64,000 nt of DNA from Bryobacteraceae bacterium. Its GTDB lineage: Bacteria > Acidobacteriota > Terriglobia > Bryobacterales > Bryobacteraceae. Position 1 is the first letter of the stretch; each line of letters begins with the position of its first letter. This document shows, one piece after another, positions 1,008 through 44,458 of this stretch. Made by a program: the position numbers and the translations under genes. The notes beneath the pieces are model-generated. The model worked only from the letters and a program-made list of their open reading frames with translations, searched no databases and was not told the origin of the DNA. The DNA is taken from assembly GCA_035294665.1 (NCBI GenBank), contig DATGKM010000013.1:31406-95405 (forward strand), written 5' to 3'.

Positions 1008-2393
1008 CTAGATCAGAGCAAACTGCTCTTCGGTGGGTTCCGCTCAACAGTACCAGGGTTCGGTCAGGTATGGAATGGCTGCGCGAGCGATTCGCGGCGA
1101 TTGCCAATTTGCCGGGCCGCAGCCGGCCAGTTCCCAAACACCTTGAAAGACCTCTTTGCGGGAGGCGCCAAGCCGCTCCCGGTGGTGCACCAAACGGTGG
1201 ACCGATTTCTGCAACTCGTCGATGGCGGGATCAGGATTGCTCCAGGGATAACTGAGAGCTTGCTGGTCGAAGGGCTGGACTATCTGGCCGATCTCCGGCA
1301 GATCGAGCAACAGAGAATGCCGCGGAATGAGCAGGCGGATCGAGAGTTGGACCGGTGCTATCTGCTCTTCCAGGCCCAGGGCGGCCAGTTCTTGCAGGAA
1401 GGCGCGGTAGGACTCCCACGTGGTCCAGGGTGTGAATGGAATGAAGGTCGGCGAAAGGGGCAGGCCGGCGGCGCGGGTGATAGCGAGCGCCTCGCGGAAA
1501 TCCGCGCAGGTGTGGCCCTTGGCCAGTTTTTCGAGGACCGCGTCGTCGAAGGATTCGACCGCGCTGGTTATGAAGAGGCAGTTAGTGTTTTTGAGGGTGG
1601 GAAGCAGAGAGCGGTGGCGCAGCAGGTGCTCGATTTTGATGGTGGCATCATAGGTCAGCTTCGGCCACTCGGCGTGCAGGGCTTCCACCAGGGCCACGGC
1701 GTGTCCCGGTCCGTTGAAGAAATCGGGGTCGCCGAATGTAATATGTTCCGCGCCGGCGGCCACCTGGCGGCGGATGTCTTCGAGCACGGTTTCCCGCTGC
1801 ACCACGCGAAAGCGGCCGCCATAGACCGGGACCACGGGGCAGTGCCGGCACAGGTGCTTGCAGCCGCGGCTGGCTTCGGTATAGCCGCTGACGCGCAACT
1901 CAGAGCTATTCAGAGCTACGCGCGCATACCTATCGAGAGATGGGAGCCCCGAGCGATCCGGAGGGAGGAACTTCTGGCGGGCTAAGGAAACCACTGAGAC
2001 ATCGAATGGCCAATGGGGATGCGATAAACGCCGCGCCAGTTCCGTAAGCGGCTGTTCGAACTCGCCGCCCAGAACGGTGGCGACTCCCGCGCCGTGGAGG
2101 AACGATTCGTTGAGCGGCGCATAGAGACCGAAGGCGCACAGGTGCGCCTGCGGGTTGTGCGCGCGGACTTTTTCCACTACTGGGACCAAAAGGCGCGTGG
2201 CGGTGTGCATGGGAAGGAAGAAGCCGATCAGATCCGCGCTCTCGACCGCATCGAGCGGCAGCGGCGCTCGCGAAAGGTCGGCAAGCGTCACCTCGTGCCC
2301 GGCTGCGCGCAGCCAGGCCGCGGGAGAAGCGAGTCCAAACGGCTGGCGGCCCATCTCATATGTGGAGATCAAAAGGACGCGCACTGCTTCCAT
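1008..2393 (-). CDS. B12-binding-domain radical SAM protein with a C-U-A-E-P tail; probable selenoprotein (TGA 1044-1046 read as Sec)
   Basis: Radical SAM cluster motif CKHLCRHC. I chose the start at MEAVRVLLISTYEMG (ATG 2391-2393). The track ORF stops at TGA 1044-1046, but the frame continues as AEPTEEQFALI to TAG 1008-1010. Confidence 0.65.
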
Positions 2394-2439: not shown

Positions 2440-3369
2440 ATGCTTGCCGCCACCAGTATTGCCGAAGAGATTCTGGATTTGAAGAAGCAGCGCAAAGCGA
2501 TCCTGCTGGCGCACCACTATCAGCAGCCGGAGATCCAGGAACTGGCTGACGTGATTGGCGACAGTCTGGAGCTCGCGCGGAAAGCGCGGGAGTTCGCGGG
2601 CGACGTGATCGCGTTTTGCGGCGTGTGGTTCATGGCCGAAACGGCCAAGGTGCTCAACCCGGAGCGGATTGTGGTGGTGCCGGATCGCGAAGCAAGCTGC
2701 AGCCTGGTCGAGGGCTGCCCCGTCGAGCCGGTGCGCGCTTTTCGCCAGGCGAACCCCGGTCACATAATCGTGAGCTATATCAACACTTCGATAGAAGTGA
2801 AAGCCGAGAGCGACATTCTGTGCACTTCCCGCAATGCGGTAAAGGTAGTGAATTCGATTCCCGCGGAGAAGCCCATCCTGTTTCTACCCGACCGCAACCT
2901 GGGCAACTACGTGAAGCGGGAAACGGGGCGCGCGAATATGGAGATCTGGCAGGGCGCCTGCATGGTGCATGCCACTTTTCCGGCGCGGCGGGTGACGGAA
3001 GCGAAGCTGGAACATCCGGACGCGCTGGTGGTGGCGCATCCGGAATGCCCGGAAGCCGTGCTGGCAATGGCCGATTTCATAGGCTCTACTTCGGCGATCA
3101 TCGAATGGTGCGCCCGAAGCGATGCCTCCGAGTTCATCGTGATGACCGAAAGCGGGGTGAATTACTCTCTGCAGCGGCTGGCGCCGGGCAAGCGCTTTTA
3201 TTACGTGGCCAACGAGAACTGCAACTGCAGCGAATGCCCGTATATGAAGCTGAACACTTTGGAGAAGCTGCGGGACTGCCTCATCAACCTGGAGCCGAGG
3301 GTGGAACTCGCGCCCGATTTGATGCGCCGCGCGCTCGTGCCGCTCGAGCGCATGCTGGCCCTGAAATGA
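2440..3369 (+). CDS. nadA: quinolinate synthase
   Basis: LLAHHYQ..EIQ..AD.IGDSLELA and FCGVWFMAETAK are typical NadA sequences. 309 aa. Confidence 0.9.
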   Translation: MLAATSIAEEILDLKKQRKAILLAHHYQQPEIQELADVIGDSLELARKAREFAGDVIAFCGVWFMAETAKVLNPERIVVVPDREASCSLVEGCPVEPVRAFRQANPGHIIVSYINTSIEVKAESDILCTSRNAVKVVNSIPAEKPILFLPDRNLGNYVKRETGRANMEIWQGACMVHATFPARRVTEAKLEHPDALVVAHPECPEAVLAMADFIGSTSAIIEWCARSDASEFIVMTESGVNYSLQRLAPGKRFYYVANENCNCSECPYMKLNTLEKLRDCLINLEPRVELAPDLMRRALVPLERMLALK

Positions 3370-4400
3370 GCGTTGGAATGAATGACCAGGTGGAGGAAAC
3401 GCCGCAAATCGGCCCACTGATCGATTCCTTCGGCCGGGTACATGACAATCTGCGCATCAGCGTTACCGACCGGTGCAACATTCGCTGTTTCTACTGTATG
3501 CCGGAGGCGGACGTGCAGTTCGTCGACCGCCGCGAAATCCTGGATTTCGAGGAGATCGAGCGGTTTGTGCGCATTGCCGTGAAGCTCGGCATTCGCAAAG
3601 TGCGGATTACGGGTGGCGAGCCGCTGGTACGGCGCGATTTGCCGGTGCTCATCCGCAGGCTGACGGAGATTCCGGAGATCCGCGATCTGGCGCTGACGAC
3701 TAATGGCGTGCTGCTGCCCAAGATGGCGGAGCCGCTGTTCGCAGCGGGGCTGCGGCGAATCAACGTGCATCTGGATACGCTCGATCGCGAACGGTTCCGG
3801 CGGATTACGCGGCGCGACGAGGTCGACAAGGTGCTGGAAGGCCTGGCGCTGTGCAAAAAGTTGGGTTACGCGAAAATCAAGCTCAACGCGGTGGCCGTGA
3901 AGAACCTGGTGGAGCCGGACATTGTGCCGCTGGCCCGGTTTGCGCGCGAGAACGGTTTTGAGGTGCGCTACATCGAATTTATGCCACTCGATGCGCAGAA
4001 CTTGTGGGACCGGAGTAAGGTGCTGCTGGCGGACGACATGATTGCGGTGCTGAGCCGCGAGATTGCGCCGCTGGTTCCGGTGCCCGATCCCGATCCGCGC
4101 GCGCCGGCAACGGAATACCGGTTTGCCGATGGAGTGGGCGCGGTGGGATTCATCGCTTCGGTGAGCCGGCCGTTCTGCTTGAACTGCAACCGGCTGCGGC
4201 TCACGGCGGATGGCAAGCTGCGGTATTGCCTGTTCGCCATTGAAGAAGATGACGTGAAGATGCTGTTGCGAAACGGTGCGCCGGATGAAGAGATCGCGTC
4301 GCTGATCCGCCGCAACGTGGCCGGGAAGTGGATCGGGCATGAGATCAACACACCTAAATTCGTCGCCCCGCCGCGGCCGATGTACTCGATTGGCGGATAA
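3366..4400 (+). CDS. moaA: GTP 3',8-cyclase (molybdenum cofactor biosynthesis protein A)
   Basis: CNIRCFYCMP radical SAM motif and a MoaA-like C-terminus (FCLNCNRLRLTADGKLRYCLF). ATG 3366 overlaps the nadA TGA (ATGA). The 594-aa track ORF is an N-terminal over-extension of this frame. Confidence 0.9.
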   Translation: MSVGMNDQVEETPQIGPLIDSFGRVHDNLRISVTDRCNIRCFYCMPEADVQFVDRREILDFEEIERFVRIAVKLGIRKVRITGGEPLVRRDLPVLIRRLTEIPEIRDLALTTNGVLLPKMAEPLFAAGLRRINVHLDTLDRERFRRITRRDEVDKVLEGLALCKKLGYAKIKLNAVAVKNLVEPDIVPLARFARENGFEVRYIEFMPLDAQNLWDRSKVLLADDMIAVLSREIAPLVPVPDPDPRAPATEYRFADGVGAVGFIASVSRPFCLNCNRLRLTADGKLRYCLFAIEEDDVKMLLRNGAPDEEIASLIRRNVAGKWIGHEINTPKFVAPPRPMYSIGG

Positions 4401-4776: not shown

Positions 4777-5904
4777 TTAGGAGCGTTTGTAGGCCGGGAA
4801 GATCACTTGCTGGATGGCTTCGCGTCCGACGGCCAACTCGCTACGAATCAGGCCATCGGCGCCCACGAGGACGGCGGTAGGTGTGGCGATGCAATCGTAT
4901 GCCTCGCCGATTTCGAACTCTCGCTGTAGCAGAATCCGCGAGGCATCGAATTCCTTCATTTTGAGTAGCAGATCGCGCGCCGGTCCGCGGCTGATCACGA
5001 CGATATTCAGAACCCCCGCGAATTCGCGCGACCAGCGGAGGAGGCTGGGAACCAGCGCGTGGCAGGACTCGCAGTAAGGGTTTGAGAATACGAGCAGGAC
5101 ATCCTTGCCCTGCTCCCGGAGGGTTCGCAGCGACCGCGTCCCGCCGGCGATTGCCGGAAGCTCGAATTCGGGGGCTCGCGTTCCAACGGGCAAGCCGATG
5201 CCCTTGGGGCTGGGCCTCGGCGGTGCGGGAGGAGCCGCCTGGACGGGGCGCCGCACCGGCGCCGGATGTTGCGCGGGTTTGGAAGGTGGCGCGGCGCGTT
5301 GCGCGGGGATATCCGCCGGGGGCGATTCCGTATCCTCGCCGTCACTGGCGGCGGGGAGCGGCGCTTCGCGGGTCTGGCGTTCCGGCCGGGCCCGGTCGAG
5401 CAGCCGGAAAAACAGGAAACCGGCCATGCCGGTCGCAATCAGAGCCGTCTTCTTTTCCTGGCCGTGCAAACCGGAGATCCATATCCAAAAACCTGGTCCC
5501 AAACGTAAGGGGCCTCGCGATACCAGCCACGCCGCGCACGCCGCCAGCCCGGCATCGCGCGACAATGCCGTCCAACCCACCGGTTTGGCGTGCAACTGAC
5601 CGAAACAACGGCAGGCTGGTTTGCGCCCGCGCAGGATCGAAATGCCGAGAGCCAGCAAAAACAAAATCAGCAGTGCGAGAGCGGCAGATGCGCCATACCA
5701 GGCGAGACCCGCGGGGACCAGCGCCGCGCCAACCAGCAATTCCACCAGTGGCAGCAGAACGATTGCGAATTTTGCCAATATTAGCGGCACGCCGAATTCG
5801 CGCAGGGTTTTGCGGAATCCCAGGGGATCTAAAAACTTGGCGGCCGCGGCCAGGAGGAATACGAAAGCCAGAAGAAGCCGGGCAGCTAGCAGGGCAAACT
5901 GCAC
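4777..5904 (-). CDS. MauE/DoxX-like membrane domain fused to a TlpA-like thioredoxin-fold domain
   Basis: N-terminal multi-TM region, a Pro/Ala-rich linker, then C-terminal VLLVFSNPYCESCH (CxxC). GTG start at 5904. Confidence 0.7.
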   Translation of the reverse strand: MQFALLAARLLLAFVFLLAAAAKFLDPLGFRKTLREFGVPLILAKFAIVLLPLVELLVGAALVPAGLAWYGASAALALLILFLLALGISILRGRKPACRCFGQLHAKPVGWTALSRDAGLAACAAWLVSRGPLRLGPGFWIWISGLHGQEKKTALIATGMAGFLFFRLLDRARPERQTREAPLPAASDGEDTESPPADIPAQRAAPPSKPAQHPAPVRRPVQAAPPAPPRPSPKGIGLPVGTRAPEFELPAIAGGTRSLRTLREQGKDVLLVFSNPYCESCHALVPSLLRWSREFAGVLNIVVISRGPARDLLLKMKEFDASRILLQREFEIGEAYDCIATPTAVLVGADGLIRSELAVGREAIQQVIFPAYKRS

Positions 5905-12780: not shown

Positions 12781-13206
12781 ATGATCCGTTTGTGTCCCAC
12801 TTGTGGCTCTAATAATCGCGTTCCTGCTAAACACTTGTCCGATACCGGTCGTTGTGGTTCCTGCAAATCCACGTTGCCGCCTGTCTCCGAGCCCATCGAG
12901 GTGGACGCGGCTGCTTTCACGGAGATCACCCGAGAGGCCAAGGTGCCCGTCCTCGTGGATTTTTGGGCGCCTTGGTGCGGCCCCTGCAAAATCGTTGCGC
13001 CGGAAGTCCATGAGCTTGCGCGGGAGATGGCGGGCCGGGGCTTAGTCCTGAAAGTCAACACCGAGGAATACCCGACTCTCGCCGCGCAATTCCGGGTTCA
13101 GTCGATTCCGTATTTCGTGCTATTGCGCCGCGGAATTATCTTGGCGGAGCGGACGGGCGTCGTTCCCCGGGCGGAAATGCGGCGATGGTTTGCGACGGCG
13201 GCGTGA
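12781..13206 (+). CDS. thioredoxin with N-terminal zinc-finger (Trx2/TrxC type)
   Basis: N-terminal CPTCGSNN...CGSCK followed by WAPWCGPCK. Confidence 0.85.
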   Translation: MIRLCPTCGSNNRVPAKHLSDTGRCGSCKSTLPPVSEPIEVDAAAFTEITREAKVPVLVDFWAPWCGPCKIVAPEVHELAREMAGRGLVLKVNTEEYPTLAAQFRVQSIPYFVLLRRGIILAERTGVVPRAEMRRWFATAA

Positions 13207-13215
13207 TCCCGCGGC

Positions 13216-13746
13216 TCAGTGAAACAACGCCGCGTGCAGCTTATCGACCGGCGGCTCGATGTACCCGATGCCGCGCCCGCAAATGGCGACGCCCGTCCAC
13301 AGCAGCAGCGAGAGAGCCGCGGCCAGCTTCACCACCCCCGGCGTGGAGGGCAATTTATCCAGCGCTTCGGTGTTGCGGTAGAGGCTCGACCGGAACACCA
13401 GCCCATGCACGAACACCAGCAACAGCAGCGACATCTTCGCCCAAAAGAAGGCGTTGTAGTAGTATTCTTCCGCTTTCGAGGAAGCCAGCAGCGCGCCACA
13501 CGTGAACACCAGCAGGAAACCGATCCGCTTCGGCCAGCGCAATTGGTTGATGACATCGCCGATCGAATAGCGCCGCAGCCCCAGCCCGAGCAGCCGCAGG
13601 TTCGTGAGGAAGATCATCCCGCCAAAGATGGCAATGAACACCAGATGCAGCGAGAGCACCACGGGATAGACATACCACGAGCCCCGCAACTCCGTAGGAA
13701 TCGTGGTGAACTGCAGCCACTGCGCAAACTTAAGAAGAGCGGACAT
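13216..13746 (-). CDS. small multi-TM membrane protein (tandem paralog B)
   Basis: Start MSALLKFAQW (ATG 13744-13746). Shares LRLLGLGLRR.S..DV and later blocks with the upstream gene. Confidence 0.55.
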   Translation of the reverse strand: MSALLKFAQWLQFTTIPTELRGSWYVYPVVLSLHLVFIAIFGGMIFLTNLRLLGLGLRRYSIGDVINQLRWPKRIGFLLVFTCGALLASSKAEEYYYNAFFWAKMSLLLLVFVHGLVFRSSLYRNTEALDKLPSTPGVVKLAAALSLLLWTGVAICGRGIGYIEPPVDKLHAALFH

Positions 13747-14177
13747 TATGCGAACCCTATAAAGATTCCGCCGAAGATGACTCCGGCCCACAGCATCAGC
13801 GAAAGCGAAGCCAGCAGCTTCGCGGAAGCGCCAGGCTTATCCGAGCCCACCATCTTGCGGTGCGCCGTATAGTGAAAGACGATGGCGGCCAGCAGGCAGA
13901 CCATTTTCAACTGAAATGCGCGATTGAGGTAATACATGTCCGGGTCGGAGGAAAACATCAGCGGCCCGGAAAGCAACAGGCTGACTAGGCCCGCCAGAGT
14001 CCACGGCGCCAGATCCCGCGCCAGATCCGCAACCTTCTGCCGCCGCAGTCCCAGGCCGAGAACGCGGAAATCCACCGCCGCGATCGTCCCCAGCGTCACG
14101 GTGAACCCGAGGATGTGGCAAACCTCCAGCGTCGGAAAAATCAGCTCCGACGAATTGAGCGGGTTCTCAATAAACAT
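13746..14177 (-). CDS. small multi-TM membrane protein (tandem paralog A)
   Basis: FRVLGLGLRRQKVADL block is homologous to the downstream gene. TAA 13746-13748 overlaps the next ATG by 1 nt (TAATG). Confidence 0.55.
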   Translation of the reverse strand: MFIENPLNSSELIFPTLEVCHILGFTVTLGTIAAVDFRVLGLGLRRQKVADLARDLAPWTLAGLVSLLLSGPLMFSSDPDMYYLNRAFQLKMVCLLAAIVFHYTAHRKMVGSDKPGASAKLLASLSLMLWAGVIFGGIFIGFA

Positions 14178-14225
14178 TCCATCCGGTACTTTATCGCGAA
14201 ACGGTGCGGCCGTGTGGAGTGGCCG

Positions 14226-14698
14226 TCAGTGCGTCATCGCGTACACTACGTAGTTCACCGCGATGCGAATGCCCAGCGCGGAGTAGCGCTCGGGATAACT
14301 GGGGTCGTCGGCCCATTCCCACGAATCGCCGGTGTCGTTGTTCACCCAAATGGCCACCTGCAGACGCTGGCGGTCGTCGTAGATCGCCCGCCAGTGCGGA
14401 ATCACGCCGCCGTTCAGGTACGGAATGCCCGACCCGAGAGACCATTGCCCGGAGATCTGATACCGATGTTCGAGATCGTAGACGGTGTGGAATGCGGGAT
14501 CGCCGTCCGGAACCTCGACGATCGGTACATCAGGCGCGCAAATACAAACTCGGTTTTGTCGCGGTAATCGGGCGGCAGTGGAAAATCGTTGTACTCCTGC
14601 CCCGGATATTCGCGAAACGGTTTTTGGAACGCCCAGGAGGTAATGGCCGTCGCGCAGAGGGCCGCAGACAGAAGCCAGCGGCCCCGGCGGGAACTCAT
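14226..14698 (-). pseudogene. DUF4159-family gene remnant with an out-of-frame internal deletion
   Basis: The N-terminal piece (signal peptide, FREYPGQEYNDFPLPPD...EFVFARLMY) is in one frame (track ORF 14414..14698). The C-terminal piece (PIVEVPDGDPAFHTVYDL...HWRAIYDD...INYVVYAMTH) is in another frame (track ORF 14226..14945). The junction is near 14520-14526. Confidence 0.55.
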
Positions 14699-14837
14699 CT
14701 ACCAATCTTACGCCAGCCATCATTCGTGCCTCAGAGCCGCCATCGGATAGGCGCGCGCGGCATAGACCAAGGCTACGGAGCAGCAGCTCACGGACCGATC
14801 GAACCGCACCCGCCCCTCGGCCGACCCGTAGTATAAA

Positions 14838-15398
14838 ATGGCTGCTATGCGATTGATTTCCATGACCGCTCTCTCGCTCGCGCTGGCTGCGGCCGGCATT
14901 GCCGCGATGGACGAGGGGAAGCCCTCCCCGCCGCTTACCATTCATCAGTTGAATGGCGGCACAATCGATCTAAGCCAGTACCGCGGTAAAGTGGTCGCGC
15001 TGGCGTTCATCGATACCACTTGTCCGCATTGCCAGCACCTTACCCAGTTGCTCAACGACATTTCCAAAAAGTACGCGGGCAAGCCGGTCCAGTTTGTGGA
15101 ATGCGCCTTTAATGACCAGGCGCAGCAGCTTCTGCCGCAATTCATCCAGCAGTTCCAGCCGAATTTCCCCGTCGGCTTCGCGCAGCGGCAGGCTGTGATC
15201 AACTATCTCAGCTATCCCGTTCTGCAGCCGCTGTACGTGCCGCATATGGTATTTCTCGATCGCCGGGGCATCGTTCGCGGGGACTACCTGGGTGAGAGCG
15301 ATTTCATGTCCCATCCCGATGTGCGCATCCCGCAGGAACTCGATCAACTGCTGAAGGGCGCCACGGCCACTTCGGCTTCGGCCAAGCAGAAGAAGTAA
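14838..15398 (+). CDS. TlpA-like thiol:disulfide oxidoreductase (redoxin) with signal peptide
   Basis: FIDTTCPHCQHL CxxC motif in a thioredoxin-fold context. N-terminal hydrophobic leader. Confidence 0.75.
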   Translation: MAAMRLISMTALSLALAAAGIAAMDEGKPSPPLTIHQLNGGTIDLSQYRGKVVALAFIDTTCPHCQHLTQLLNDISKKYAGKPVQFVECAFNDQAQQLLPQFIQQFQPNFPVGFAQRQAVINYLSYPVLQPLYVPHMVFLDRRGIVRGDYLGESDFMSHPDVRIPQELDQLLKGATATSASAKQKK

Positions 15399-38415: not shown

Positions 38416-40635
38416 TCAGTGAGTAGCGATGCTTTTCAGCACGGTGCTGCCGACCGTTCCATTCGGGTCTAGAACGCAACTGCCGTTATCGCCGAGCACC
38501 GTATGGCCATCGGGGCCGCGCGGTAGAGCCAGGATTCCAGCCATATCGGCCTGCAGCAGCGATCCCGGACCGTAATAGTAGTTGGGGAGCCAGTTGGCGA
38601 ACAAGGCATACGATTTGCCGTTATTCGGGCTGACATAGGCGGTCAGCGTGTGTGGATCGTAGCCGGCTTCGAAATTCGCCACTCCGCATACATAAGCGTA
38701 ATCCTGCAGCGTGGGCGTGCCGCTGCCGGAGGTTGCAGGGAGCTTCAAAATAGCAAACGAACTCCCATTGAACTCACCGGTAACTACGGCCAGGTGTTGG
38801 CCTCCCGGAGCAACGGCGGATCCGGAGAGTCCGGCCGAATAAATGCCGAGGATCGTGGGAGTCGAAGTTGGCGCAGACCACGAGCCGGGCGTGCCGGGGG
38901 TGAAGGTAGCCTGCGTCAAATCGGCCAGCACGAATTGGTTGGTAAACTCCGCGGGCGCCAGGGCGATGCCCGTGGAGCAGTCCTCGGCCGACGAGTCCAG
39001 TTCCCCGATGCCGATGTTTTTGGTATATTCGGCGGTCAGCCCTCCGCTGGGATCCAGGGCCACTAGGTCGTAGTTCGATTCCTCATTCGCGGAAAGCACT
39101 GCGCCCCGGTTGGGATCGATGGAGATGTTTTCCGAAACCTCATTCGCCAGCGGAAAAGGTGGCAGGAAGGTATCGGTTGCCAGATTGAGCGTCTGTAGCG
39201 CGGAGCCACTCGGGGCGGCGCTGTCGCCGATGGTGAGCACGGCGTAGTTGCCGGCGGCATTGACGGCCACACCGCCGGTATATGGATGGCCTCCCGAAAA
39301 GTTCATAGTGGTGTCGGCCGAATCCGTGAGACTGGTAAACGTGTTGGTCGTCCCGACACCGCGGATATGGTAGACATGGGTGTTGTTCGCCACGCAAACG
39401 GCATCTCCGGTGGCGGGATTGCCGGCACAGGAGTTGATGTAGTCCGGCAAGGCCAGCGAAACGGGGGCAACGGTTGGTCCACCGCCGGTTTCCAACTGGA
39501 CTACTTGAGCGCCTGGGGTGCCATAGGACCAGGACGCGTTCGGAGCGATCGCAAACACCGGCGCGGGCCCGGTGACGGGAGCAACCACTCCGAGCGAACT
39601 GGCGGGAACGCAGGAGGACAATGTCCTGCTCGTGCCCGTAACCTGCACCAGCGAGCAGGTGGTACCGCTGGTGAAAGCTGTATCGCCGGCTGTGGAGTCG
39701 CTCAGTTGAATGTAGTAATTGCCCGTCGTGAGCGAAGCCGGAATACTCACGTTCACCCGTTTCGTGCTGCCAATGATAGTGCCAATGCTATTGGCCACAT
39801 TCGTCGCGACCGGGGTTCCGCCGCAACTCGTTTCCCAACTGACCATAATGTTTGCGGCCGCAGTGTCGCCACTCGGCCATCCGCTGGCGGTTACGTTGAC
39901 GTTATTGACTCCCGCCACGCCGGTACTTGGGGTGGTTACCGGAGCCAGTCTGACCGTGGTTACTGTCGCAGCCTGAACGGGAACCGTTGCGAGGGACAAT
40001 GCCAGCAGCAGGGCGGCCGCCACGCCGCCAGTCCGCGCGCGCAACAGAGCGCGGAAATGGCTACGCCGCGAAAAGCCCAGGAATAACCCGATGATCGCCA
40101 GCGGGAGCCAGAAACCGGGTTCGGGCACCGAACTCCCAGCGGAGGTGGCTTCGATGAGCGCCAGGTCTCCGTCCGATAAATTGGGGGGGCTGGAGGGCAG
40201 AATGGTCGCGCTAAACGTGGAAAGAATATCCACGGTACCAACGCCGGACACATCGATGCTGGTGGGGCTGAAAGTGCCGGTGAGCATCGCTTCGACCGGC
40301 ACCGGATTGACGCCGCCGATTCCAATATCCGAGCCATTCCACGACAACCCATCGGCGGCCAGAGTGAAATAGGTGGAAGGCTCCATTACGCTCGAACCAT
40401 CCGAAAAATCGATCGTCAAACTCAGGTTCGAGAGATTGACGGAACTCAGAACGGGAAAATCCGGTGGTAAGGAATTCGGGCCGGTCCCATTGAAAATATC
40501 GAAGGCCGCGGTATCCGTGCCTACGATATCGTAAGATACGTAGCCGACAGTATAAACGTCGGCAAACACCGGAGCCTGGGCGAGCAGCAGCGCTGCCGCG
40601 GCCAAACCGGCCGTTTTGCAGTGATTCCTCGTCAT
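38416..40635 (-). CDS. 739-aa ORF: N-terminal PEP-CTERM protein fused in frame to a second secreted (IPT/beta-propeller-like) protein
   Basis: Signal peptide 1 (LLLAQAPVFA|DVY). VPEPGFWLPLAIIGLFLGFSRR sorting signal at codons about 170-191 (VPEP = 40117-40128). A second signal peptide follows (RARTGGVAAALLLALSLATVPVQA|ATV). Confidence 0.6.
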   Translation of the reverse strand: MTRNHCKTAGLAAAALLLAQAPVFADVYTVGYVSYDIVGTDTAAFDIFNGTGPNSLPPDFPVLSSVNLSNLSLTIDFSDGSSVMEPSTYFTLAADGLSWNGSDIGIGGVNPVPVEAMLTGTFSPTSIDVSGVGTVDILSTFSATILPSSPPNLSDGDLALIEATSAGSSVPEPGFWLPLAIIGLFLGFSRRSHFRALLRARTGGVAAALLLALSLATVPVQAATVTTVRLAPVTTPSTGVAGVNNVNVTASGWPSGDTAAANIMVSWETSCGGTPVATNVANSIGTIIGSTKRVNVSIPASLTTGNYYIQLSDSTAGDTAFTSGTTCSLVQVTGTSRTLSSCVPASSLGVVAPVTGPAPVFAIAPNASWSYGTPGAQVVQLETGGGPTVAPVSLALPDYINSCAGNPATGDAVCVANNTHVYHIRGVGTTNTFTSLTDSADTTMNFSGGHPYTGGVAVNAAGNYAVLTIGDSAAPSGSALQTLNLATDTFLPPFPLANEVSENISIDPNRGAVLSANEESNYDLVALDPSGGLTAEYTKNIGIGELDSSAEDCSTGIALAPAEFTNQFVLADLTQATFTPGTPGSWSAPTSTPTILGIYSAGLSGSAVAPGGQHLAVVTGEFNGSSFAILKLPATSGSGTPTLQDYAYVCGVANFEAGYDPHTLTAYVSPNNGKSYALFANWLPNYYYGPGSLLQADMAGILALPRGPDGHTVLGDNGSCVLDPNGTVGSTVLKSIATH

Positions 40636-40963: not shown

Positions 40964-43900
40964 GTGAAGCGCATATGGCTTTTGTTTTTGGCAGTCTGGG
41001 CCGCGCGTGCCCAAACCGCCGTTATCGACTACTCCAATCTGCACGAGCGCCAGGTGATTAACGGATTTCGCGCCGCGGCGGTCTACCTGGACGATGCGGG
41101 CCGGGCCATGGGCGGGCGCTTCATTCAAATTCGCAGCGGATTCACGCTCGATCTGCTGCGCATTCCATCGGTGCCGCAAGGTTTTATCTGGGTGAAGACG
41201 TACCCGACTTCCAATATGGGCGAGCCGCACACCGAGGAACACCTGCTGCTCGGCAAAGGCACAAGGGGCCGCGCTTTGGGCAGCATCGAACCGATGTCGC
41301 TGGTCACTTCGAGCGCCTATACCTTGCAGTGGATGACCTGCTTCCATTTCTATACCGCCGCCGGGCCGGAAGTTTTCTTCGAGCACTTCGAGCGCATCTT
41401 CGAGGCGCTGAAATTCCCCAACTACACCGATGAAGAGATCCGCCGCGAAGTGCGCAACTTCGGCGTGAGCGCGGGTCCGGGAGGCACGCTGCGCCTGGAA
41501 GAGCAGGGCACGGTCTACAACGAAATGACCACTTCCATGGATCAGCCCGCCTACCGGCTCTTCAATCGCGCGGGCGTGGCCATCTACGGTCCCGATCATC
41601 CGCTGGCGTTTTCGGCCGGCGGCCTGCCGGAAGCGCTGCGCAGGATTCAGCCCGCCGATATCCGCCGCTTCCACGACGCCCACTACTTCGGCGGCAACAT
41701 GGGCATGATCGCGGCGCTGCCCAAAGAGGTGCCGCTCGAAACGGCGCTGGCCAAAATCGATGAAGCGCTCGACCGCGTGGAGCCGCGCCACCCGGTGCTT
41801 CCGGTGATGACGGAGGAGAACCTGCCGGCGCCGCATCCCGCTCCAGCCGGACGCATCGAGTACGTTCCATATCCTTCGCAGAATGCGCAGCAGCCCAGTT
41901 CGGTGTTGCTGGCGTGGCCGGCGGAGCGCAAACTGGCCAACCGCGAATACGAGCTGCTAAATCTGTTCCTGGATAATTTTGCCGGAGAGCCGGATACGAA
42001 CCTGTACGCCCGCTTGGTGAACAGCCGCACCCGCGACAGCGATTTCGGCGTTCAGGGAATTAACGCCTGGGCCGATGCCGACGAGGGCAACCCCGTTTAC
42101 ATGATGTTCCGCGACATGCCACCCGCCGCGATGGACGACAAGAACCTCGGATTACTGCGCTCCAAAGTGCTGGACGAGTTGCGCCGTGTCGCCGCGTATC
42201 CCGATGGCTCAGCCGAATTGCGCGCTTTCAACCAGCGGCTCAAAAGCCGGATTCTGCAGCGCCGGCGGGAACTGGCCCGATTCGTCAGTTCGCCTCCAGG
42301 TTTCGGCCAGCGCGGCGTAAGTTCGGATTGGGTAATGCAACTGGTGCGGCTGAATCGGGAGCCGGGCTTCCGCAAATCGCTCACCGAAAAAGAGGACCTG
42401 GACGCGATCGAAGCGCAACTGGCGGGACCGCGCAACCTCTGGCGCGAGTATCTGGCGAAATGGAAACTGATAGCGGTCGCGCCCTGGATCGAAGCGGCCA
42501 AACCAGACCCGGCGCTGATCGAGCAGGAAACGCGCGAGCGGGCCGCGCGCATCGCCGCCGAAACCGAGCGCCTGAAGCGGCAATACGGCGTGACGGACAC
42601 GCAAGCGGCGCTGCGCCGTTACAAGGCCGATCAGGACGCCGCCGCGCAGGCGATCGAAGCGGCCGCGCGCGAGATCACGCCGCCCCGCTTTATCGAAAAC
42701 CCGCCGCTGGGCCTCGACGATTCGCTCCAGTTCACTACCCGCAAGCTCGCAGGCGGAGTGCCCCTGGTCACTTCCACTTTCGACAGCATGACCGGCGCGA
42801 CCGTGGGACTCGCGCTCTCGCTGCACGCCGTGCCACGCGAGTTGCTCGTCTATCTGTCGCTGCTGCCCGAGCTGCTGACGCGCTCCGGAGTGATCGAAAA
42901 TGGCCGGCCTGTTTCCTATCCCGAAATGGCCGAGCGCCTGCGCACCGAAATCCTCGGCTTGAACGCGGACTACCGGATCAATCCGCTGACGAACCGCTAC
43001 GAACTCGTAATGCGCGGCTCGGGCAGCAACCCCGCCGAAGCGCGGCGCGCGCTGGAGTGGATGAAGCTGGCGCTGCTCCATCCCGATTGGCGGCCGGAAA
43101 ACCTGCCGCGCCTCCGCGACCTGGTAGAGGAAACGCTGGGCCTGGTACACAACACGATGCAGAGGCCGGAAGAAACCTGGGTGGAAGATCCGGCGCGCGC
43201 CTGGCTGTACCAGATGCACCCGCTGCTGCTCGCGACGTCTTCGTTTCTCACCCGAGAACACAATCTGTTCCGCCTGAAATGGATGCTCAAGGGCGGAGGC
43301 GCGCCGGATATCTACCAGTTTCTGGAAGCCCTCGCCGGCGCTAAGGGGACGCGCGCCGAGCGGATGCAAATGCTCGCCGCGATCGCGCAGGGCACATATG
43401 CGGGCTTCGATTCCCTCGCCGACTTTTCGAAGAGGCTGGCGCAGGATGCGGCCCGCGATCTCGAAACCGTTTTACCGGAAATTCCCGATTCGAGCCTCGC
43501 CTCCGATTGGGCGGATTTGTGCCACGGCATGCGGCGCGATCTGGCATCCGGGCCGGAGAAAGTTCTGGCCGATCTCGACAAACTGCGCCAATCGCTGCTC
43601 GAGCCGAACGGCGCGCGCATGTTCCTGATCGGATCGCCGGAAGCACAGCGCAGCTTGAGCAGCGCGATTGAGAAGTTTCCGGGGTTGCTCGAAAATAGCG
43701 TTCTTCAAAGGGAGGCTTCCCGAAATTACCTGGCGATCGAACAGCGCCTCCTCAGGCGCGATCGCATAGGTGGGGCTCCCCTGTTCGTTGGCCTGGTGAA
43801 TCCCAACTCGCAAGGCGGGGTCTTCCTCAACTCCGCCCCCGGCGCGAGCTACCACGACACCAGCCCCGATGCCCTGCTCGATTTGCTCGCCTCGCTGCTC

Positions 43901-44458
43901 TACGCCGGCCACGGCGCTCACAGCATGTACATGAAAACCTGGTCCGCGGGGTTGGCCTACAGCAACGGCATTCGCATTCACCCTCTCGAAGCCCGCGTGA
44001 CCTACTACGCCGAACGCACCCCGCTGCTGCCGCAAACGCTCGAATTCGTCATCGGCCAACTGAAGAGTGTCCGGCCCAATCCCGCGCTCGCCGAGTACGC
44101 CATCGCCGGCGCCTTCGACGGCATCCGCTCGGCGCTCTCCTTTGAAGATCGCGGCGAAGCCCTGGCCGAAGATCTGGCCGATGGCCTGACGCCGGAAGTG
44201 GTGGCGCGCTTTCACCGCGCCATCCTCGACCTGCGCAAGCGCCCGGATCTCGCGGACGAACTCTTTCGCAGGATGCCGAAGATCTACGCGCGCGTCCTCC
44301 CCGGCATGGGCGTTCCGGCGAAAGACGTACCCGGCGCCGTCTACTTCGTCATCGGCCCCGAAAACCAGTTGGCAGCCTACGAACAATACCTGAAAAAAGC
44401 CGAAGGCCCCGCGACCCGCCTCTTCCGCCTGTACCCCCGCGATTTCTGGGTAGAGTGA
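40964..44458 (+). CDS. large secreted M16 (insulinase/pitrilysin) family metallopeptidase-like protein
   Basis: Inverted zincin motif HTEEH (GEPHTEEHLLLGKG). Signal peptide MKRIWLLFLAVWAARAQT. 1164 aa. GTG start. Confidence 0.7.
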   Translation: MKRIWLLFLAVWAARAQTAVIDYSNLHERQVINGFRAAAVYLDDAGRAMGGRFIQIRSGFTLDLLRIPSVPQGFIWVKTYPTSNMGEPHTEEHLLLGKGTRGRALGSIEPMSLVTSSAYTLQWMTCFHFYTAAGPEVFFEHFERIFEALKFPNYTDEEIRREVRNFGVSAGPGGTLRLEEQGTVYNEMTTSMDQPAYRLFNRAGVAIYGPDHPLAFSAGGLPEALRRIQPADIRRFHDAHYFGGNMGMIAALPKEVPLETALAKIDEALDRVEPRHPVLPVMTEENLPAPHPAPAGRIEYVPYPSQNAQQPSSVLLAWPAERKLANREYELLNLFLDNFAGEPDTNLYARLVNSRTRDSDFGVQGINAWADADEGNPVYMMFRDMPPAAMDDKNLGLLRSKVLDELRRVAAYPDGSAELRAFNQRLKSRILQRRRELARFVSSPPGFGQRGVSSDWVMQLVRLNREPGFRKSLTEKEDLDAIEAQLAGPRNLWREYLAKWKLIAVAPWIEAAKPDPALIEQETRERAARIAAETERLKRQYGVTDTQAALRRYKADQDAAAQAIEAAAREITPPRFIENPPLGLDDSLQFTTRKLAGGVPLVTSTFDSMTGATVGLALSLHAVPRELLVYLSLLPELLTRSGVIENGRPVSYPEMAERLRTEILGLNADYRINPLTNRYELVMRGSGSNPAEARRALEWMKLALLHPDWRPENLPRLRDLVEETLGLVHNTMQRPEETWVEDPARAWLYQMHPLLLATSSFLTREHNLFRLKWMLKGGGAPDIYQFLEALAGAKGTRAERMQMLAAIAQGTYAGFDSLADFSKRLAQDAARDLETVLPEIPDSSLASDWADLCHGMRRDLASGPEKVLADLDKLRQSLLEPNGARMFLIGSPEAQRSLSSAIEKFPGLLENSVLQREASRNYLAIEQRLLRRDRIGGAPLFVGLVNPNSQGGVFLNSAPGASYHDTSPDALLDLLASLLYAGHGAHSMYMKTWSAGLAYSNGIRIHPLEARVTYYAERTPLLPQTLEFVIGQLKSVRPNPALAEYAIAGAFDGIRSALSFEDRGEALAEDLADGLTPEVVARFHRAILDLRKRPDLADELFRRMPKIYARVLPGMGVPAKDVPGAVYFVIGPENQLAAYEQYLKKAEGPATRLFRLYPRDFWVE

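Follow-up and report, generated by a model that had tools for sequence, protein, structure and literature searches.

The closest characterised relative of the gene described here is ArsL (NCBIfam family NF040542), a radical S-adenosylmethionine (SAM) enzyme with a canonical CxxxCxxC motif, which builds a C-As bond on arsenite and whose cleavage of SAM yields methylthioadenosine (MTA) plus a 3-amino-3-carboxypropyl species (10.1101/2024.02.01.577332; 10.64898/2026.04.29.721666). As(III) is bound by the three cysteines of its RCCLKC tail, which is needed to make the product, while being dispensable for SAM cleavage (10.1101/2024.02.01.577332; 10.64898/2026.04.29.721666). A second family, NF040546 (“CUAEP/CCAEP-tail radical SAM (seleno)protein”), has been put on record as a selenoprotein family, still uncharacterised, that bears the rare CU motif (i.e., Cys followed by selenocysteine, Sec or U), and CU motifs were found to concentrate in heavy-metal and organometallic proteins (Haft 2022, bioRxiv 10.1101/2022.07.06.499078). 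Here we describe a minus-strand gene of this second kind, located near the start of a 64,000-nucleotide stretch of DNA from a Bryobacteraceae bacterium (contig DATGKM010000013.1, positions 31,406 to 95,405; henceforth the window, numbered from its first letter). Our best explanation as a whole is that the gene is a member of NF040546, that an in-frame UGA in it is read as Sec through an RNA hairpin lying just 3' of it, and that its product has an ArsL-like function. We assign this explanation a probability of roughly 80%, with the ArsL-like function, taken as a part on its own, being possible rather than probable.

The protein was scored against family profiles with Cys in place of U. It matched NF040546 with 625.7 bits (curated equivalog cutoff: 500 bits) over profile positions 1-467 of 468, meaning that the match extends through the tail; cut at the UGA, the protein still scored 603.4 bits, which is again above the cutoff. 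The features of NF040546 membership were all present, namely the CxxxCxxC motif of the core (CKHLCRHC, 1862-1839) and the C-U-A-E-P tail (TGT TGA GCG GAA CCC, 1049-1035), and the locus shares with the family the alternation of Sec and Cys at one column. The runner-up among NCBIfam families was the RCCLKC-tail family NF040542 (271 bits, E = 1.7e-80, residues 6-398; cutoff 450 bits). Conversely, a genuine RCCLKC-tail protein, encoded on a Bacillus cereus plasmid, scored 708 bits on NF040542 and only 370 bits on NF040546. Judged by these profile scores, the CUAEP-tail and RCCLKC-tail families are clearly related yet distinct. The preliminary description of this DNA had pointed to a family named after the CUAEP/CCAEP motif, and such a family does exist: on its profile match the gene is assigned to an already catalogued, curated selenoprotein family, and the finding is known at family level. 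Its interest therefore lies mainly in the chemistry of the enzyme. Compared with most NF040546 relatives, the window hairpin has a stem shorter by one pair, and compared with about half of the family loci, the window locus lacks a downstream ATP-grasp ligase.

The open reading frame (ORF) runs on the minus strand from an ATG at 2393 through TGT (1049-1047) and TGA (1046-1044) to TAG (1010-1008), with a predicted C-terminus of ...TEPWY-C-U-AEPTEEQFALI (Table 1). The codons following the TGA are GCG GAA CCC ACC GAA GAG CAG TTT GCT CTG ATC. The TGA after TEPWYC, the extension behind it and the final TAG had been placed at these same positions in the preliminary description, and all of its coordinates were right. 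Gene calls in public records end at the TGA and give a protein of 449 amino acids. An identical TGA was found in two independent assemblies of the organism (an NCBI metagenome-assembled genome and a Logan assembly of Sequence Read Archive, SRA, data), which excludes a sequencing error. The window was placed at bases 31421-95420 of contig JBAIIA010000350.1 in the metagenome-assembled genome GCA_037025125.1.

To compare genomes, we used 80 species-level loci of the family (L001-L080) and scored the codon 3' of a W[YF]C motif. This codon was TGA in 68 loci and TGC in 12, never TAA or TAG, and an in-frame [A/S/T]-E-P tail followed it in all 80. The comparison that the preliminary description had proposed, i.e., whether orthologs carry a Cys codon in the TGA column with AEP kept after it, thus came out in favour of its reading. 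Protein records gave the same picture: the 120 closest protein clusters comprised 108 whose gene calls stopped exactly at W[YF]C and 12 that continued as CCAEPTEEQxxLV, and among more distant representatives at 50% identity there were 38 stop-called proteins and 42 with Cys read-through, the read-through tails having the consensus A-E-P-T-x-x-Q. Within the TGA loci, comparing the A-E-P codons pair by pair gave 3210 synonymous and 191 non-synonymous differences, and variation was nearly confined to third positions, with GCG, GCC, GCT and GCA for Ala, GAG and GAA for Glu, and all four codons for Pro. Given that the A-E-P differences are near-exclusively synonymous, we conclude that the tail is translated and under purifying selection; a lack of coding conservation beyond the TGA, which the preliminary description had named as evidence that would speak against it, is not what we observe. 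The same UGA-AEP layout occurs in a distant phylum, in Thermomicrobium roseum DSM 5159 (TESWFC-TGA-AEPLEDPSGPV). The listed coding sequence of this family member (WP_012643191.1; megaplasmid NC_011961.1, 8935-10404; locus L091) stops at the in-frame TGA.

These results bear directly on the simplest alternative, namely true termination at the UGA, which would give a protein with EPWYC as its C-terminus and leave the following 11 codons untranslated. In keeping with it, public gene calls all end at the TGA, the shortened protein passes the family cutoff (603 bits), and Sec machinery is not seen in the window. However, all 68 stop-bearing loci use TGA rather than TAA or TAG, with TGC in the other twelve; the downstream codons vary synonymously and can be aligned with the CCAEPTxxQ tails of Cys-form proteins; and the NF040546 hidden Markov model continues through the tail. 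We therefore find a genuine stop hardly credible.

In the selenocysteine insertion sequence (SECIS) of Escherichia coli fdhF, the essential bases of the apical loop are G23 and U24. The window has a hairpin of the arms AGAGC (1029-1025) and GCUCU (1019-1015) around the loop AGUUU (1024-1020), which starts 14 nt 3' of the UGA and which the preliminary description had reported exactly, including the GU in its loop. Counting the U of UGA as position 1, loci of the Bryobacterales clade (to which the window belongs) pair positions 17-22 with 28-33, typically as AAGAGC/GCUCUU with the loop AGUUN. In a long-tail clade of Terriglobia/Acidoferrales, positions 16-22 pair with 27-33, typically as GGGACC/GGUCCC with the loop AGUU; in ten cases this stem contains a single A-C mismatch or a bulged A. 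Owing to a Leu codon that reads CUG and not CUU, the window stem falls one pair short of those in related loci. Further stems among the loci include GCGGGC/GCCUGC, CCGGCC/GGCCGG and GGCGACC/GGUUGCC, and in T. roseum the hairpin reads GGACCC-GUC-GGGUCC, again with G24-U25 in the loop. Pairing was found in 87% and 90% of cells in the two clades, and fell to 33-62% when the 3' arm was slid. Both sides had changed at four of seven pairs in each clade, and none of 500 shuffles attained the observed covariation score.

The hairpin also follows the identity of the codon upstream of it. The mean contiguous stem was 5.6 bp in 66 TGA loci vs 1.7 bp in 10 TGC loci. The Gln codon that gives loop G24 (codon +7 after the UGA; 1025-1023 in the window) was CAG in 65 of the 66 TGA loci, and CAA was found at this codon in 4 of the 10 TGC loci; in this comparison, the synonymous Gln site is frozen only where it provides G24. 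The amino acids that the hairpin arms encode (e.g., EEQLAL, GDQLVP or SGQLAC) shift together with the RNA stem preserved, and this holds over two tail lengths, one of 11 residues in Bryobacterales (AEPTEEQLALV) and one of about 25 residues in Terriglobia/Acidoferrales (AEPTRDQLVPIAKAKEAVRQAETFV). Two Cys-form loci (L053:7318 and L072:7309) have the tail AEP[A/E]EDPFTVV, with neither the conserved Gln nor the hairpin. Their tails display the form that is taken once the SECIS constraint has been lifted.

Being maintained by compensatory changes where the codon is TGA and mostly missing where it is TGC, the hairpin behaves as a bacterial SECIS. As in E. coli fdhF, it lies immediately 3' of the UGA within the coding sequence and has an apical-loop G-U at a nearly equal distance (here G24/U25). 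Unlike in fdhF, the stem is far shorter (5-7 bp), a bulged U is not evident in most copies, and the true stop follows just 2-15 codons past the hairpin, close to the gene end. On this comparative evidence, the hairpin in the tail-coding RNA (stem 17/18-22 with 28-32/33, loop AGUUN in the Bryobacterales clade) directs recoding of the UGA by presenting G24-U25 in the geometry of a SelB-dependent bacterial SECIS, from which we infer the SelB step.

A different form of recoding would have the UGA read by a suppressor other than tRNA-Sec (an allo-tRNA or a SelC*-type opal suppressor, such as are described from Acidobacteria and other phyla), inserting Cys or another residue. Acidobacteria do have unusual allo-tRNAs, which have been proposed to be nonsense suppressors (PMC5389517). 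General suppression, however, needs no TGA-specific hairpin, and a position-specific hairpin with a G-U loop that is kept in TGA forms only is the signature of SelB-dependent recoding; the same arrangement is moreover found in Thermomicrobium, outside Acidobacteria, and NCBI curators class the family as a selenoprotein family. We thus regard suppression as highly improbable.

Several results weigh against Sec decoding. Folded as a single sequence, the 68-nt region of the window gave z = +0.8, with 163 of 200 shuffles folding equally well or better, and the window stem is short (5-6 bp). A permissive Rfam scan of positions 940-1110 (E <= 10) gave no model that matches the hairpin, in which respect it differs from bacterial SECIS elements such as that of fdhF. 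ARAGORN found no tRNA-Sec in the 64-kb window, nor was a tRNA-Sec found adjoining the gene in 60 related loci, and tblastn searches with E. coli SelA, SelB and SelD gave no match in the window and related loci (1.2 Mb). In addition, an Rfam scan of the window at gathering thresholds returned only a tRNA-Asn, and the recorded gene calls with Pfam across the entire window included no SelA, SelB or AIRS domains. Because the window hairpin is non-significant alone, the case for it relies on the comparative data. Its interpretation as a SECIS in the preliminary description therefore stood as regards conservation, covariation and specificity for TGA across relatives, and found no backing in Rfam or in the fold of the window sequence by itself. 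Acidobacteria are documented Sec users (PMC1794560). The selenocysteine that the preliminary description had called probable is supported by the Sec/Cys column, the conservation of the tail and the hairpin together, and we conclude that UGA 1046-1044 almost certainly encodes selenocysteine. On every point open to checking, the preliminary description proved right.

Table 1 Features of the CUAEP-tail radical SAM gene, with positions in the window.
Feature	Positions	Strand	Evidence
CUAEP-tail radical SAM selenoprotein coding sequence	1008..2393	-	461 residues, Sec at 450; NF040546 625.7 bits over residues 6-459
N-terminal Rossmann-type, B12-binding-like domain, residues 16-119	2037..2348	-	PF02310 24.9 bits, below gathering threshold of 32.1; AlphaFold model likeness to AprD4/B12-domain radical SAM enzymes
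Radical SAM core, residues 175-333	1395..1871	-	Pfam PF04055 45.9 bits
CxxxCxxC [4Fe-4S] ligands, C178-K-H-L-C182-R-H-C185	1839..1862	-	Cys at these columns in 78/79 family proteins; kept in ArsL-family protein
Cys272 (TGC), family-specific core cysteine	1578..1580	-	Cys in 78/79 proteins; Val in B. cereus RCCLKC/ArsL-family protein
Cys449 codon (TGT), first of the Cys-Sec pair	1047..1049	-	Invariant in 79/79 proteins
In-frame UGA, almost certainly selenocysteine 450	1044..1046	-	TGA 68 / TGC 12 of 80 loci; aligns with second Cys of ArsL CC
11-residue translated tail AEPTEEQFALI	1011..1043	-	AEP synonymous variation; Cys-form homologs CCAEPTxxQ; ~22 bits added to family score
SECIS-type hairpin, stem AGAGC/GCUCU, loop AGUUU	1015..1029	-	G24 at 1023, U25 at 1022; offset and loop shared by 66 TGA loci
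True stop TAG	1008..1010	-	Read from sequence

With respect to function, the window protein and ArsL are homologous over the range given above (residues 6-398, E = 1.7e-80), have the same domain order and both end in a short C-terminal tail. A three-way alignment placed R-C-C-L-K-C of ArsL on Y-C-U-A-E-P, meaning that the vicinal Cys-Cys corresponds to Cys-Sec and the third Cys to Pro. Invariant residues of the core are mostly common to both families (E111, R147, R176, H180, H217, D222, D224, N227 and H231, and further D249, H256, E280, K292, W323, R353, W384 and D392), and an ATP-grasp gene is found in or near loci of both. Differences from ArsL include a segment of about 35 extra residues before the tail, the family-specific Cys272, Sec itself and the lack of an arsenic gene context. 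The AlphaFold (AF2) model of the window protein had a mean predicted local distance difference test (pLDDT) score of 87.9, with 60-76 in the tail. Its best Foldseek matches were AprD4 and B12-domain radical SAM enzymes (TsrM, OxsB, MgmA and TokK; E 3e-17 to 1e-10, template modelling (TM) scores 0.56-0.67), in which, too, a Rossmann-type domain at the N-terminus precedes a radical SAM barrel; by contrast, identity to these enzymes is just 13-21%, the B12-binding Pfam match is sub-threshold here, and none of them has a Cys-Sec tail. By sequence, no close homolog was found among solved structures (best AprD4, E = 2.7e-5), and thus no ArsL or CUAEP structure that would help to place the tail.

The recurrent partner of the family is an ATP-grasp L-amino-acid ligase (ATP-grasp_4 plus LAL_C2, with a weak BacD-like match), which follows the family gene on the same strand in about half of the 78 scored loci. 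It is the immediate downstream gene in about 38 loci, typically 0-35 nt past the post-tail stop (e.g., L062:7456-8763 and L021:7295-8680), and in two more it is about 3-4 kb away. Sec forms as well as Cys forms belong to the ligase-linked set, which takes in most long-tail loci and several from Bryobacterales. The tight spacing of the ligase from the post-tail stop fits the longer frame, and the arrangement suggests that the radical SAM gene and the ligase are co-transcribed. An ATP-grasp gene with 28% identity is also present in the B. cereus RCCLKC/ars plasmid locus.

We propose that the window enzyme would act like ArsL, its nearest characterised relative. Its [4Fe-4S] core, held by CxxxCxxC, would cleave SAM reductively, a reaction that in ArsL yields a 3-amino-3-carboxypropyl species besides MTA. 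At the C-terminus, the flexible Cys-Sec pair (aligned with the arsenite-binding Cys-Cys of ArsL) would hold a soft atom, either a metalloid or a chalcogen, in the active site, a carbon-heteroatom bond would form, and an unusual amino acid would be produced; in the many genomes where the ATP-grasp ligase sits in the same operon, the ligase would go on to build this amino acid into a dipeptide. By analogy with ArsL, such carbon-heteroatom bond formation with a Cys-Sec arm and a product usable by an amino-acid ligase is possible, and we put it somewhat below an even chance.

A number of observations detract from this functional proposal. At 271 bits, below the ArsL cutoff of 450, the window protein is not an ArsL, and its tail is CUAEP and not RCCLKC, offering two soft ligands rather than three. 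Cys272 was considered as a third ligand and down-weighted: though family-specific, it is placed by the model where a beta strand begins, which makes such a role doubtful, and it may be far from the active site. No ATP-grasp ligase is present in the window, and ligase linkage is restricted to Acidobacteriota and may partly be inherited synteny. Arsenic genes are absent from the window and lie near only 1 of the 80 family loci, so that gene context does not support arsenic as the substrate atom.

The main alternative to an ArsL-like mechanism is that the Cys-Sec pair is a redox arm which forms a selenenylsulfide, in the style of thioredoxin reductase, and delivers electrons or a hydrogen atom, either quenching a radical intermediate or reducing the active site again, with no metalloid held. 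The mammalian thioredoxin reductase has a C-terminal Gly-Cys-Sec-Gly redox arm. As in the window protein, its adjacent Cys and Sec are on a C-terminal extension with the main cofactor buried elsewhere; fold and cofactor are unrelated, however, and the pair described here is followed by 11-25 conserved residues instead of a single Gly. In favour of such an arm, redox-active sites typically interchange Sec and Cys at one position, model confidence is only moderate for the C-terminal segment bearing the pair (pLDDT 60-76), thiol-redox genes abound in the window (a thioredoxin, two redoxins and a MauE/AhpC fusion), and metalloid genes are not nearby. Yet the aligned Cys-Cys of ArsL binds arsenite and is dispensable for SAM cleavage, the conserved AEPTxxQ segment after the pair means that it is not at the extreme C-terminus, and a thioredoxin or reductase gene next to the family gene does not recur across loci. 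Taken together, a redox arm appears somewhat doubtful to us.

The pair might instead ligate an auxiliary iron-sulfur cluster, possibly together with Cys272 or Cys86. The family has these extra conserved cysteines (C272 in 78 and C86 in 72 of 79 proteins), and auxiliary clusters are frequent in the radical SAM superfamily (10.1101/2024.02.01.577332). Against such a cluster, deletion of the ArsL tail left iron and sulfur content unchanged (10.1101/2024.02.01.577332), the tail supplies two ligands only, and profile scans of the protein (NCBIfam, Pfam) detected no SPASM or twitch domain. We know of no case of Sec acting as a ligand of an iron-sulfur cluster, which also counts against this alternative, and we judge it very unlikely.

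Returning to ArsL-like bond formation, a more specific form of it by analogy would be that CUAEP-tail proteins are non-canonical radical SAM enzymes which use a Cys-Sec arm to present a soft atom other than arsenic (e.g., Sb, Se, Te or Hg) to the aminocarboxypropyl group of SAM, with the ligase operons leading to a dipeptide antimetabolite. In this full form the proposal is speculative and, in our view, unlikely; if true, it would amount to a widespread, unrecognised soil pathway to an organo-metalloid or organo-chalcogen natural product. More generally, homology to ArsL, the alignment of Cys-Sec on Cys-Cys and the recurrent amino-acid ligase partner suggest that radical SAM enzymes of a second kind form carbon-heteroatom bonds. 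With 581 clusters at 50% identity (E <= 1e-30), the family is large; it is frequent in Acidobacteriota of soils, and roughly 580 species genomes have a homolog. The residue lost from the 108 of 120 closest clusters which standard gene callers cut at the Sec codon is probably catalytic. T. roseum DSM 5159 is cultured and has the Sec form, and thus offers an experimental handle.

The radical SAM gene of the window is solitary, with a convergent HD-GYP gene (158-976) on one side and a divergent nadA-moaA pair (2440-4400) on the other, an arrangement common to other Bryobacterales loci. In T. roseum, the neighbours are a divergent PLP aminotransferase, a convergent MFS transporter and a GNAT acetyltransferase, and these do not recur around family genes. 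The B. cereus locus (plasmid pAH820_272, 1450-13218; L092) has its RCCLKC gene together with a MIP channel, a GTP-binding protein, a GNAT protein, two ArsR, ACR3, arsC, arsD and arsA, and its ATP-grasp gene lies 3.3 kb upstream. This arsenic context is far richer than that of any CUAEP locus: the sole locus of the 80 with ArsC and ACR3 has them a few kb downstream (L013:10676-11740), and the ArsR, ACR3, ArsC, ArsD, MIP and GNAT genes, considered as possible shared context, do not recur around family genes.

A scan of the window for TGA read-through, based on GC content at third codon positions, returned just shadow ORFs and ordinary stops, with no second selenoprotein. One shared frame was seen at 13746-14723 (minus strand), where the TGA stop of the DUF4159 gene (14226-14228) is in frame with the next gene, DUF6644, whose start at 14177 is 16 codons on; lacking a Cys context, it is probably a coincidence. 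Thiol-redox genes are unusually many in the window, comprising a MauE plus AhpC/TSA fusion, a zinc-ribbon thioredoxin and two redoxin-family genes (4777-5904, 12781-13206, 14862-15398 and ~36.9-37.4 kb), none of them with an in-frame TGA. Finally, the window contains two large divergent genes with no Pfam match on record, one of 739 amino acids (minus strand, 38416-40635) and one of 1164 amino acids (plus strand, 40964-44458), both of which are conserved in two other SRA assemblies.

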